This document shows, in pieces, positions 1 through 3,000 of a stretch of DNA of 9,456 nt. The stretch is from a virus. Taxonomy: Duplodnaviria > Heunggongvirae > Uroviricota > Caudoviricetes. Positions within the stretch are counted from its first letter, which is position 1, and every line of letters starts with the position of its first letter. Made by a program: the position numbers. The DNA is taken from the IMG/VR virus record IMGVR_UViG_2675903324_000008, positions 1 to 9,456 of that record; one strand, 5' to 3'.

Positions 1-3000
1 CCAGCGTCATCGGTGTGCCCTTGCTGGTCTGTTTTACCTGCGGGTCGTCCACCAGCCGCCCGTAAGCGGCTATCTGTGCTGTCATGATTCCACCTCTCCG
101 GTTTTAACGTTGATGGTTGTTACCTGTTCCGCTTCGGCAATCTCACGTTCTGTCAGCGTGGCAAAGTTTGCCGCTGCTGTGGTCATGAATGCGCTTATCA
201 GGTCGGGATGTTCCTTCGCGTATCCTTCCCCCGCGTGGCGGTCTATCGTTCTGATTGCCACCTTTAAGGCGTGCTCTGTCATGTCTAACGCTTTATATTT
301 TGGCTCTGTTCTGTCTCTGTGTTTTTGAGTCATTTGCCCACCTCTACCCACTTTTTTCGCCCACTTTTTACGTTTTCCCACTTCGTCCAACGTGGGAAAT
401 TTGGGATTTATATCATCTTGTTTCATAGGTATTTTTTTAGTGCCCACTTTTTGGGATATATACACGTGGGAAAGTGGGTAATTTTGTTAAAATTACGTTA
501 AATTGCCCACCTTTCCCACTTTTAATGCCCACTTTTTACAGTGGTCCTACATCATCACCGTCAATGTAGATCACGTCGTCTTTTTCCAGTTTGGCTAACC
601 ATCGTTTAAGGTGTTTTGTGTCATACCCCAGCTTTTTCATATCGTCACGTAACAGCGGGATCGTGCACTTGTCGCCGTGCTGTGTGCGTGAACGTATGCA
701 CCCCCATAGCGCGGTATGGTTTTCCGTCTTGTTGCCTGCCTCCTCGATGCGCTCCAGTTCAACGGGAGGGCGCGGCTTATCCACCACCACCAGCGACGTG
801 ATTAACTCCCCGTCAGCGTCGGTAAAAAGCTCCACCACGCGTAAGTCATATGCGGCTTCTTTGAGTTCCTCCGCGTCCTTCATTTTGGTGCATGAGATAA
901 CCAGCGCTTCGCTTCCTGCGTCCTCCCTGCGTATCCGGTATTCAGCATCCAGTGATGCACGAAATGCGCTGGAACCGCGCGCGCCTTTCGTCTCATCCTT
1001 GCCGGAATGGTGAACCACCAGCACCGTGGCCCCTGTGCGCCGTTTCAGTTCGTCACACCCACGGATAAACGCCCCCATATCACGGGAATCATTTTCATCA
1101 TTGCCGCCAAAGCAACGCGCCAGCGTATCCAGAATAATCATTCGGACCGGTTTACCCGTTTCCCGCTCCACCTGGCTGGCAGCGATAACCATTTCATCAA
1201 TATCAAGCGGGGCAGCCGGAAAGATGGGACGGTTTACCAGATACAGATTTTTCACCTGCTCATCGTGCACAACCTCCCAGGCTTTTACACGACGCGGAAC
1301 GCCTATACCGCCTTCACCAACCACATAGAGAACAGCGCCATGCGCCACCCTGCGGCCTCCCCACTGGCGGCCCGTGGAAACGTGACACGCCCACGATCCG
1401 GCAAGGAATGATTTATAGGAACCGCTCGCCCCGTATATACTGCAAAGCGACGATGCCGGAATAATTCCCTTTACCACGTAATCAAGCTGTGTGTCGTATC
1501 CGGTAGATCCAACGCTCATCGGTAGCTTGGTTTTTCGCTGGGGGATTTTTTTCATGACCAGGCTTTCCCCGCGTTCCCATGCCTCCCTAAGCCGTGGAAG
1601 CTGGTCGCTCCATTCCTCCAGCAATTCGAAATTTTCAGAAAGTAGCCGCGCCTCCTGGACTCCGGCGATCGCCAGTTTCGTGGCGATGGTTAACAGCTGC
1701 GGCTCTTCAATATTTCCGGCGCGTATCACCGTCGCCCTGTATCGCCCATCATCAACAATCTGGAGGTTATCCAGTTCGCTTAACTGATAACGCCCCAGAT
1801 AAACGGGAGGGACTGGATCGCCTGCTTTTTTGGCCTGTGCAATGATGTAATGCTCTGCGAATGAGTGAGCATCAATACCCGCAAAAATAATCGCATCGGT
1901 GTATTTATCTTTCGGTAATAGTTTTACGTTCGGTGCCAGTTTCATTTTTTACTCCTGAATCCGTTAATCATGGTTTTCAGAATCCCGCCACGCCCTTAAT
2001 CATTACCGTACCGCCGTACTGGTCGCGGTAAATATCACCGCGCGTAAATTTAGGGTGAGTGTTGCCACTGGCAGTTAAGCCAGAATATTTAAGCTTCATT
2101 ATTTTTATTCTCCGGTGTGGGGCGCTTTATACTGGTCGTGTAATGTCTCTATTTCCTGCAACTCATTTATTACAGGCTCAAGAAGCGTTATTAATGCCGT
2201 GGCAATTCTTGATTTTTGTTTGTCGCGTTCATTGTCGCCAAGTGTTTCAAGCCATATGCGCAATATTTCCATCATATTTTCACTGTGAGAAAGTGCAAGA
2301 AATACGCGATCTGTTGTTTCGTGGTAAATATCACGCATATTAATCCCCGTCCGTCGCTTTTCTTAAAATAACCTCTGTCACGAAATCAGCATAGTTAGCG
2401 GCAATATCAAGAATATTTAGCCCTGTATCTCTGTGCTCATCAGTGCAAAGAAAGAAAAAAGCCACCCGCATAATTTCAGATATTGACGAAAGCGCATCAG
2501 CCGCATCATCAGGAACGCCGGAAAATTCCTGTTTCAGGGAATTAAAACGATCATCACGCATAACCCCCCCCATTTTCACAATCAGCAACAAGAATATTTT
2601 TAGCGTCATTCAGCGACCGCGTGGCGGTGTATCGGATACATTCCAGGGCGAACGATGTGTATTCTTCCCGTTCTTCCTTTCGTGCAAGCTCTGCTGTGCA
2701 TTCAATATCAATAAGCGCGTGCATCAGCGTAGTGAGTGCGGCGGCGGCTGCGTCCGGTGTGGTTTTATTGCACATGTACCCCTCCGCATTTTTTTTCGTT
2801 AGAAATAAGCGTTCTTCTTTCCTGTTCATCGCTCAGGAATACGCAGACCTCACCGCTAAGGCGTTTAAGTAAGCCGATGATTGCCCCTGATTCGCTGTCG
2901 GTCATCATGCCAGGGTAATCCTCTGCCAGTGCGCAAATAACTTCGATTTGGTGGGCGCGTTCTGCTGCCTGTTGTAGTGTGATTTCCTGGCTCATAAGCC

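Follow-up and report, generated by a model that had tools for sequence, protein, structure and literature searches.

An iteron array 3' of a helicase-type rep gene as the probable replication origin of a PICI-type satellite

The rep gene, its neighbours and the repeat array

The DNA analysed here (the window, 9,456 nt in all, to which every coordinate refers) carries an integrase gene (5223-6461), an AlpA-like regulator gene (5006-5230), a Bro-N gene (4368-4946), rep and an SSB gene, all on the minus strand. With its integrase, AlpA-type regulator and one-directional gene order, the island fits a PICI; relatives carry the capsid genes of capsid-forming PICIs, and one of them, L001, is a capsid-forming island at tRNA-Pro. 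Between rep and the next gene lies an array of short repeats, laid out as follows.

536-1945, minus strand: rep, encoding a 469-aa initiator-helicase
539-760, minus strand: Rep C-terminal domain (residues 396-469), a predicted winged helix
506-536, minus strand: rep-proximal iteron set, three direct copies, AAAAAGTGGGC at 528-538, TAAAAGTGGGA at 515-525 and AAAGGTGGGC at 506-516
481-505, no strand: AT-rich spacer A, 88% A+T, GC 0.32-0.35, the least stable duplex of the region
466-480, plus strand: two inverted iterons, with cores at 466-470 and 474-478
456-465, no strand: conserved non-iteron motif, GTGTATATAT on the gene strand, from a multi-locus alignment
443-451, minus strand: direct iteron at the centre, AAAAGTGGG, separated by about 30 nt from the inverted copy
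397-442, no strand: AT-rich spacer B, A+T about 76%, containing two degenerate half-sites ATCCCAAA
337-396, minus strand: distal iteron set, an inverted core at 392-396, then direct copies at 377-383, 360-368, 347-355 and 337-343
82-333, minus strand: 83-aa ORF matching phrog_1231 (PHROG match, 6e-53), outside the rep-ori cassette
1-85, minus strand: start of the SSB gene, overlapping the 83-aa ORF at an ATGA and continuing past the window edge; with it the replication module is complete

An SSB gene is annotated at the homologous place in three relatives (L001, L002 and L004). In Rep, residues 1 to about 135 form a Toprim-like, degenerate primase-like N-terminal domain, and residues from about 150 to 395 a RepA/DnaB-like helicase core of the hexameric type (SF4, RecA-fold; Pfam AAA_25). 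The only PDB sequence match to this core was RSF1010 RepA (1g8y), its nearest solved homologue, and the search with Rep recovered no SaPI Rep chain at E<=0.1. An invariant 'IFAG' in the 469-aa Rep replaces the catalytic Glu-x-Gly of Toprim, as read by eye from the alignment without superposition, and its sequence appears to have neither a primase Zn-ribbon nor the catalytic Glu of Toprim; Rep relatives of about 700 aa have a full primase. The predicted recognition helix H3 of the C-terminal domain spans residues 446-455 (581-610), with the His447 codon at 605-607, and Foldseek on this small domain gave weak matches (E-values of at least 0.06). No record in the phage collection covers at least 80% of Rep, the helicase core alone matching primase-helicases of unrelated phages, and we found nothing specific in the literature on an initiator in satellites that joins an SF4 helicase to a winged helix. 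The DUF4222 gene upstream, which overlaps the rep start, has a deletion of about 144 bp in this island, and given this deletion the window copy of rep may not be expressed normally.

The repeats are real, lie where they had been placed and far exceed chance. The earlier note had described at least ten copies of CCCAC(C/T)TTT in both orientations, which holds for the 5-nt core only: CCCAC/GTGGG starts 11 times within 337-532, against about 0.4 expected by chance per 200 nt, with eight CCCAC cores on the plus strand (337, 347, 360, 377, 443, 506, 515 and 528) and three on the minus strand (392, 466 and 474). The full 9-mer, CCCACYTTT, occurs exactly six times and in a single orientation (347, 360, 443, 506, 515 and 528, plus strand), where 0.23 copies are expected in the whole 9,456-nt window; six or more copies arose in 0 of 200 shuffles. 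CCCACYT has nine copies within 337-534 and one elsewhere in the window, and CCCAC has 18 copies across the other 9.2 kb. The repeat unit reads (A)AAGTGGG (n=11 in the intergenic region), and the iteron is present in both orientations, with inverted pairs. The two outer iteron sets point in an identical direction, whereas the central pair (466-478 versus 443-451) is divergent, and the distal direct copies are spaced by 10-17 nt, about one helical turn.

The array begins at the rep stop codon and reaches the SD of the gene that follows. As had been claimed, the copy at 528-536 touches the rep TAA (536-538, minus strand) and the copy at 337-343, within GAGGTGGGCAAATG, lies over the SD of the 83-aa ORF. 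The proposed AT-rich core among the repeats is also borne out: GC falls to 0.32-0.37 in 391-540, compared with about 0.55 in the flanking genes, and a nearest-neighbour profile of duplex stability in 25-bp segments has its minimum at 479-505, followed by 408-440, with a dG of about -25 kcal/mol for segments starting at 478-481 against a mean of -34.4. Spacer A is one candidate unwinding site. Searches of 300-580 for a DnaA box (up to one mismatch), an IHF consensus, a Fis consensus or a GATC cluster found none.

Conservation of the layout across genera

Is the array a property of this island or of its Rep class? We collected more than 80 relatives from about 25 enterobacterial genera and scanned the 342 nt 3' of rep in the 78 for which that sequence is available. 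Between 3 and 11 GTGNG cores follow the rep stop in 74 of the 78, as against 0.1-1 per 342 nt elsewhere in each locus. Absence of the repeats from homologous islands, which the earlier note had named as the finding that would count against its proposal, is not what the comparison gives, the array lying always 3' of rep homologues. Across genera the order from the rep stop is three direct copies, an AT spacer, one or two inverted copies, TATA, one direct copy, an AT spacer and four direct copies. The rep-proximal set keeps its position in 17 aligned loci from 10 genera, and an inverted copy stands at the matching place in all 17. Within the non-iteron motif, TATA at 459-462 (alignment columns T86 A87 T88 A89 in the window row) is invariant across genera while the surrounding iterons vary, so that melting or helicase loading might nucleate here. 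In all mapped loci the central direct and inverted iterons form a divergent pair around this TATA, about 22-31 nt apart, and spacer B has a counterpart of about 45-50 nt; the four direct distal copies are likewise found in mapped relatives.

This conservation bears on whether the repeats have a function at all, or stem from slippage, low complexity or a real coding region. Mechanical ORFs at 82-465 (minus strand) and 319-501 (plus strand) do span the array, and its RNA has a fold a little more stable than that of shuffled sequences (z = -1.86), an effect of the inverted iterons. Yet RefSeq annotation places the start of the downstream gene at the equivalent of 333, no Rfam family scores above threshold, and the number, order, orientation and spacing of the repeats are kept in about 25 genera while the unit changes in concert; the comparative data have effectively refuted this reading already, and we give it practically no weight. 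An RNA element was considered and rejected, since Rfam gave no match at gathering score and, at a relaxed E-value, eukaryotic miRNA and snoRNA hairpins far below threshold.

A second reading makes the array an operator or roadblock, bound by Rep or another island protein, that controls rep read-through into the SSB and morphogenesis genes and is not a replication start. The two genes flanking the array are co-directional, and promoter and terminator prediction gave nothing beyond chance in 1-2200 and nothing in 334-540, so transcripts have to run through the repeats; the SD of the 83-aa gene, moreover, lies under the last copy, and plasmid iteron-binding initiators commonly autoregulate. The repeats, however, lie 3' of rep and not at its promoter, and other genera have an array of this layout in front of unrelated genes or non-coding DNA. 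The AT spacers, invariant TATA and divergent pair are origin-like and resemble tested PICI and SaPI origins. We consider transcriptional control improbable as the whole explanation; any regulatory role could exist alongside origin function and would not take its place. The suggestion that the SD overlap couples replication to expression did not generalise: in other genera the SD is a separate element, 5-60 nt beyond the end of the last repeat, and EcCIEDL933 retains GAGGTGGCAAATG at the SD site despite its ACCCGC iterons. A DNA-bound protein, moreover, is no block to the ribosome.

Exchange of rep with its repeats and covariation with the predicted recognition helix

Comparison of islands with different initiators separates the array from its neighbours. 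EcCIEDL933 shares the downstream 83-aa gene (94.8% DNA identity), its homology to the window stopping at 344 and resuming only at 1869, and it carries a DUF927 Pri-Rep with ACCCGC iterons. In a second island, L086, int, alpA and the regulatory genes are 97-99% identical, and a 'DNA primase family' rep is accompanied by GGTAGA iterons. Because near-identical islands with another rep carry unrelated repeats at this place, the array belongs to Rep and not to the neighbouring genes, and by these alignments rep and ori seem to act as one swappable cassette, from window position 345 to about 1868.

The same exchange speaks against taking the array for a pac/cos packaging site or a partition-type site, recognised by an island terminase small subunit or a centromere-binding protein. 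Capsid-forming PICIs do have their own packaging genes, and such sites are often repeat arrays, but between EcCIEDL933 and the window the repeats were swapped with rep while the capsid and packaging side stayed homologous. No ParB- or TerS-like gene is adjacent, each element has one cluster (the complete island L001 has a single one, as does L087, a complete 17-kb circle), and the repeat sequence co-varies with the Rep C-terminal domain. A packaging or partition role is thus very unlikely, even more so than transcriptional control.

This covariation centres on the predicted recognition helix. A K-H motif accompanies GTGGG in 11 of 11 loci with an array, K-N accompanies GTGAG in 26 of 26, (VR)K-S accompanies GTGCGGCA in 7 of 7 and K-K accompanies GTGGGGGA in 26 of 26. 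The fourth base of GTGNG follows the residue at the start of the helix without exception: His with GTGGG, Asn with GTGAG and Arg-Lys-Ser with GTGCG. A close contrast is that between the window and the relative L005, whose helicase cores are 98% identical: the L005 iterons are all GTGAG and those of the window GTGGG, and the C-terminal domains differ at only seven positions (H424N, K440R, T445V, H447N, L448M, K449R and D459A). The Asn/A pairing also recurs where cores are nearer to His/G lineages (L081 is 76% identical to L029 and 64% to L006). Since the covariation classes largely coincide with clades, the 70 concordant loci represent far fewer independent events, arguably two or three, and because rep and ori adjoin, some association between Rep and repeat is expected from co-inheritance alone.

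Other candidate determinants were tried and rejected. The N-terminal domain splits with iteron type in four E. coli examples, but Reps of 350-703 aa with unrelated N-termini share an iteron class according to their C-terminal motif. Neither the DUF4222 protein nor the 83-aa protein can be the binder, identical or near-identical copies standing beside different iterons; the DUF4222 protein WP_000770163.1, for instance, is identical in L001 and L086, whose iterons differ.

The origin reading and its relation to known systems

We propose that 337-536 is the vegetative ori of a PICI-type E. coli phage satellite, recognised by the protein encoded immediately upstream, a reading that the sequence comparisons make highly likely. 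Every comparative test run supports what the earlier note had proposed, an iteron origin bound by the adjoining initiator as in SaPI rep/ori: the array lies always 3' of rep, tracks the predicted recognition-helix residue and is swapped with rep. Further support comes from the match to the published PICI layout, for which replication was tested with another rep type: as its text describes them, PICI origins lie 3' of rep and have an AT-rich region flanked by two sets of iterons, and a plasmid can replicate from the pri-rep-ori of EcCICFT073 (Fillol-Salom 2018, PMC6092414). The locus is very probably a clear example of this rep-iteron-ori arrangement and not a new kind of element, and it leaves the current understanding of island replication unchanged.

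How might such an origin fire? Upon induction of the island, through an AlpA-driven, rightward-only operon, Rep would be made, and its winged helices would bind the iterons. Rep might then oligomerise on the divergent central pair and flanking arrays, the duplex would open either at the TATA motif or in the AT-rich spacers, and Rep, acting as its own loader, would become the replicative helicase, in the manner described for SaPI Rep. Host DnaG would presumably do the priming, since the 469-aa Rep appears to lack the primase Zn-ribbon and Toprim catalytic Glu, and the unwound strands would be coated by the island's own SSB. More tentatively, and with somewhat less than even confidence, we suggest that this Rep class consists of loader-free, self-loading SF4 helicases that recognise their own origins through a fused winged helix, with origin specificity set largely by one residue reading position 4 of GTGNG (His-G, Asn-A, and Ser with an Arg-Lys insertion-C). 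If so, satellites would be swapping a series of mutually orthogonal rep-ori cassettes, which would explain the coexistence of several related islands in one cell and provide ready-made orthogonal replicons. Apart from that suggestion, the comparison confirms where a very common family of E. coli satellites has its probable origin, and the window and L005 offer a clean natural experiment in the co-change of initiator and site, seven residues, one at the recognition-helix tip, against G-to-A in all eleven repeats. Predicting the incompatibility of co-resident satellites and building orthogonal replicons are possible uses.

Among known systems the E. coli PICIs EcCICFT073 and EcCIEDL933 are alike in having int, alpA and a one-directional operon, often with DUF4222, 83-aa and SSB neighbours. 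By the text of PMC6092414, their origins also lie directly 3' of the initiator, with iteron sets around AT-rich DNA and rep and ori in one module. The initiator of EcCIEDL933 is a DUF927/primase-type Pri-Rep of 710 aa, with TAACCCGCA iterons in a 370-nt gap, whereas the Rep of the window is a RepA/SF4 helicase of 469 aa, its AAAGTGGG iterons occupy 202 nt, and the DNA from 345 to about 1868 has no similarity to that island; a DUF927-type Pri-Rep with TAACCCGCA-type iterons is not what the window carries. SaPI Rep reads 5-6-nt iterons through a C-terminal winged helix (Qiao et al. 2022, PMC9371898). SaPI rep/ori shares with our locus iterons directly downstream of rep (6-12 copies), an AT-rich centre, an N-terminal domain of unclear role and a primase that in some cases is fused (PMC9371898). 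The self-loading initiator-helicase with such a domain would be a further likeness if the prediction for our Rep is right, and the opposite-facing iterons of SaPIs may correspond to the divergent central pair here. This resemblance is one of design and not of protein family, because the motors differ. RecA-fold RepA-type helicases such as RSF1010 RepA and T7 gp4 move 5'-3'. The SaPI motor is of the AAA+ type (SF3/MCM-like) and moves 3'-5' (PMC9371898), whereas the Rep core here is a RecA-fold AAA_25/RepA domain, outside the SaPI family. SaPI origins are also drawn as symmetric, whereas the outer iteron sets here point one way.

More distant systems share single elements of the design. The primase-helicases T7 gp4 and mitochondrial Twinkle have neither an origin-recognition winged helix nor an iteron origin. 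IncQ RSF1010 has the nearest solved helicase core, in RepA, and an origin of iterons and an AT-rich region. Its iteron binder (RepC) and primase (RepB) are separate proteins and its iterons 20 bp long, whereas here helicase and predicted iteron-reading winged helix appear to be parts of one protein and the repeat unit measures 8-10 nt; we found no separate RepC-like initiator gene adjoining rep. Classical iteron plasmids (Rep_3 or RepA WH1-WH2) have 17-22-bp iterons, DnaA boxes and a non-helicase initiator, in contrast to the 8-10-nt unit, the lack of a DnaA box in 300-580 and the helicase in the candidate initiator here. Phage P4 is, like this island, a satellite of enterobacterial phages, and its alpha polypeptide unites priming and helicase functions with sequence-specific C-terminal binding to short repeated octamers (discussed in part in PMC6092414); its helicase, unlike ours, is SF3-type, and P4 needs a distant second cluster, crr, in cis, whereas here there is a single cluster.

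One hint that a rep-ori segment of this class may drive autonomous replication comes from CP018459.1, a 16,971-bp circular 'plasmid' of K. pneumoniae: it is an island with this Rep class and no typed plasmid replicon, and its GTGCGGCA array has a layout matching that of the window. Among 5,426 complete genomes, about 1,680 contain sequence like the stretch from rep through ori to the 83-aa gene and 635 have at least 80% of it; many of the matching genomes are Shiga-toxin-producing strains. The island itself lies inside a lambdoid (Stx-type) prophage, in the gene for its large terminase.

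The array behind rep and its gene context

Every gene in the left two-thirds of the window lies on the minus strand, and the repeats occupy a gap late in this series, given here in transcription order:

5223-6461, minus: integrase
5006-5230, minus: AlpA-like regulator
4368-4946, minus: Bro-N anti-repressor-like gene
minus: several small ORFs, between the Bro-N gene and the 469-aa gene
536-1945, minus: rep, the 469-aa gene
202 nt: repeat-bearing gap between rep and the 83-aa ORF
82-333, minus: 83-aa ORF
85 down to 1, minus: SSB gene, start only, last in the window

The exact 9-mer CCCACYTTT occurs six times in the gap, against 0.23 copies expected across the whole window, a number reached in none of 200 shuffles. 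The earlier note's observation is borne out, with one qualification: it had counted at least ten copies of CCCAC(C/T)TTT in both orientations, and this holds for the 5-7-nt core (CCCACYT nine times in the gap; CCCAC 11 times within 200 nt of gap, out of 29 in the window, eight copies running with the genes and three opposed) and not for the full 9-mer. On the gene strand the unit reads (A)AAAGTGGG. As that note had also described, the array overlaps both flanking signals, its first copy adjoining the rep stop codon and its last, inside GAGGTGGGCAAATG, covering the Shine-Dalgarno sequence (SD) of the 83-aa ORF. GC content drops from about 0.55 to 0.32-0.37 in the gap region, with the lowest duplex stability at 479-505 and 408-440. 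No consensus sites for DnaA, IHF or Fis were found in the array region, and no promoter, terminator or RNA family match in the gap. On either side of the AT-rich spacer, the proximal direct iterons and the inverted ones make up an imperfect palindrome with 25-nt arms (461-524; arms 461-485 and 500-524, 72% complementary), which could fold as a hairpin in single-stranded DNA.

Each element carries a single repeat cluster, and its order is conserved across genera:

1: 3-4 direct iterons, beginning at or within the last rep codons
2: spacer, about 25 nt; in the Serratia/Pectobacterium group it is longer
3: 1-2 inverted iterons
4: invariant (T/C)(G/A)TATA(T/C)A motif (window 456-465; TATA at 459-462 invariant)
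5: one direct iteron, at a distance of about 22-31 nt from the inverted copy
6: AT-rich spacer, 45-50 nt
7: four direct iterons, spaced about one helical turn apart

Does the SD overlap couple replication to expression, as had been suggested? In the E. coli group the site beside the start codon changes with iteron class, from GGTGGGC to GCGAGA or GTGAGG, and is therefore probably a real iteron. A conserved coupling, however, is not supported: the EcCIEDL933 island retains GAGGTGGCAAATG at the SD position though its iterons are not GTGGG, and in other genera the SD stands separate, well past the last iteron. Interference with transcription reading through the origin is possible.

At its other end rep adjoins a DUF4222 gene, which in relatives (300 nt) overlaps the rep start. 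A deletion of about 144 bp has shortened it in the window (1980/1983 corresponds to 10980/11125 of L001, a capsid-forming island at tRNA-Pro; window 1977-2099 against L001 10942-11241), and because the truncated gene overlaps the rep start, rep expression in this island could be affected and the copy may be impaired.

Covariation of the repeats with the Rep C-terminus

Rep matches Pfam AAA_25 (E=1e-43, residues 151-318); among solved structures, only the RSF1010 RepA hexameric helicase is related to it in sequence, and RefSeq names its relatives 'helicase RepA family protein'. Its predicted architecture resembles a T7 gp4-type primase-helicase with a reduced primase end, the Toprim catalytic Glu being absent in an alignment read by eye, and an added, putatively DNA-binding winged helix.

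Four E. coli islands whose Reps are 74-99% identical share one repeat map and differ in the unit. We then scanned across genera, taking one genome per species, which gave 80 loci from about 25 enterobacterial genera. Within 342 nt 3' of the rep stop, 74 of 78 analysable relatives carry 3-11 GTGNG cores, compared with 0.1-1 per 342 nt elsewhere in the same loci. The fourth base of the core tracks the residue aligned with window Rep His447, without exception among loci with an array.

Iteron units in E. coli islands, and iteron cores by Rep motif (loci with an array)
Window and L001: unit AAAGTGGG
L003: unit AAAGTGGGG
L004: unit AAAGTGAGG
L005: unit AAAGTGAGT
Rep 446-447 Lys-His: core GTGGG, 11/11
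Rep 446-447 Lys-Asn: core GTGAG, 26/26
Rep motif Val-Arg-Lys-Ser: core GTGCGGCA, 7/7
Rep 446-447 Lys-Lys: core GTGGGGGA, 26/26

Helix 3 of the predicted winged helix, usually the recognition helix in such folds, has residue 447 in its first turn. The N-terminal domain was considered as the driver of the association and set aside, since it is the C-terminal motif by which Reps of 350-703 aa group into iteron classes. Between the window and L005 the helicase core is 98% identical, seven C-terminal-domain residues differ, and every iteron copy changes from G to A; conversely, the core of the Asn-type Rosenbergiella Rep (L081) is 76% identical to that of a His-type Pantoea Rep (L029) versus 64% to that of an Asn-type Xenorhabdus Rep (L006). 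On these comparisons, the iteron association is independent of the helicase core, and the repeats are supported as Rep's putative binding sites. Iteron classes partly coincide with clades, so independent switch events are few: two or three can be argued, from counts made without phylogenetic correction, and the evidence runs uniformly in one direction.

The Toprim-like end has its own distribution. Residues 1 to about 135 (window 1541-1945) share 46-57% identity with the N-terminal ends of DUF927, P4-family primase and DUF5906 proteins on plasmid records from Klebsiella, E. coli and Arsenophonus, which suggests that initiators differing in their helicase motor have exchanged this domain. At the DNA level, the first 25 or so rep codons are also 76-80% identical to those of the other rep types in E. 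coli.

Exchange of rep and array between islands

EcCIEDL933, in the literature the prototype of capsid-forming PICIs, has the 83-aa gene and SSB too, and is 94.8% identical to the window across positions 1-344. Homology ends exactly at the array edge and returns at the rep 5' end (window 1869); between these points lie a DUF927 Pri-Rep and 12 ACCCGC copies. An island of E. coli strain 154 (L086) is 97-99% identical to the window in integrase, alpA and regulatory genes, and its rep is of a third kind ('DNA primase family') with GGTAGA/TCTACC repeats 3' of it. Two islands whose iterons differ encode, just ahead of rep, one and the same DUF4222 protein. Shared flanks around different rep genes and repeats argue that rep and array form one cassette, spanning window 345 to about 1868, that is swapped as a unit, and the alignments place the array with rep, not with the rest of the island. 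Its boundaries are sharp (window 345-1868 against EcCIEDL933 4285-6691 and L086 10456-12904). Islands that have integrase, regulatory or downstream genes in common at 94-99% identity thus carry rep-ori cassettes of three unrelated kinds: a RepA-type one whose iterons are GTGGG, a DUF927 Pri-Rep one with ACCCGC repeats, and a 'DNA primase family' one with GGTAGA repeats. Strain 154 holds two such islands with different cassettes.

The island itself interrupts the gene for the large terminase subunit (lambda gpA type) in a lambdoid prophage:

about 6462-6622 (region 6462-7630): island-terL junction, terL' directly beside the island integrase
6623-7630, minus: terL', Pfam GpA_ATPase, N-terminal 335 aa only, ending ...ASFWM*

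No account of a satellite that integrates into its potential helper's terminase gene turned up in our limited literature search. The same junction, at 99% identity, occurs in an Stx2c prophage of E. coli O22:H8 strain 154 (L086 6340-7470 and 17427-18431), where the second terL half restarts as ...WMEGPAAAF about 10 kb off. A core of about 12 nt, TTGGATG(T/G)AGGG, lies at both island ends, so excision should restore terL. At least 80% of window 5200-9456 is present in 57 of 5426 complete genomes.

Relation to known origins and a proposed mechanism

By design and location the array is very probably a PICI/SaPI-type origin, in agreement with the SaPI rep/ori likeness first noted. SaPI Rep carries an AAA+ motor and EcCICFT073 Pri-Rep is a DUF927 protein, whereas the window Rep belongs to neither family. 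Membership comparison rejected the classical iteron-plasmid origin, the P4 ori/crr pair and the IncQ system for the window array. Origins of this kind are already published, also for E. coli PICIs: in SaPIs, iterons of 5-6 nt lie around an AT-rich centre immediately behind rep and are read by the winged helix of Rep (PMC9371898), and a study of E. coli PICIs reports the same layout and plasmid replication driven by an EcCICFT073 pri-rep-ori fragment (PMC6092414). What we add, at the level of sequence comparison, is a description of the RepA/SF4-winged-helix class, the conserved map and the residue-to-base covariation.

Most likely, the Rep winged helices would bind the iterons, with assembly on the divergent central pair, while the outer arrays would raise local concentration or bend the DNA. 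The duplex would open at the TATA motif or an AT-rich spacer, and Rep would then ring single-stranded DNA as the replicative helicase, with priming by host DnaG and strands covered by the island SSB. For SaPI Rep such a scheme is established (PMC9371898).

A circular K. pneumoniae record of 16,971 bp (L087, CP018459.1) holds an island whose Rep is of the window's class and whose array is GTGCGGCA; the record has no typed replicon besides. Its genes (integrase, capsid, head-tail adaptor, terminase, RepA-type Rep) are those of a capsid-forming PICI. Assembled as an episome and deposited as the 'plasmid' pKp_Goe_795-4 (circular, untyped, non-mobilizable), it gives a weak hint that such islands exist naturally as episomes.
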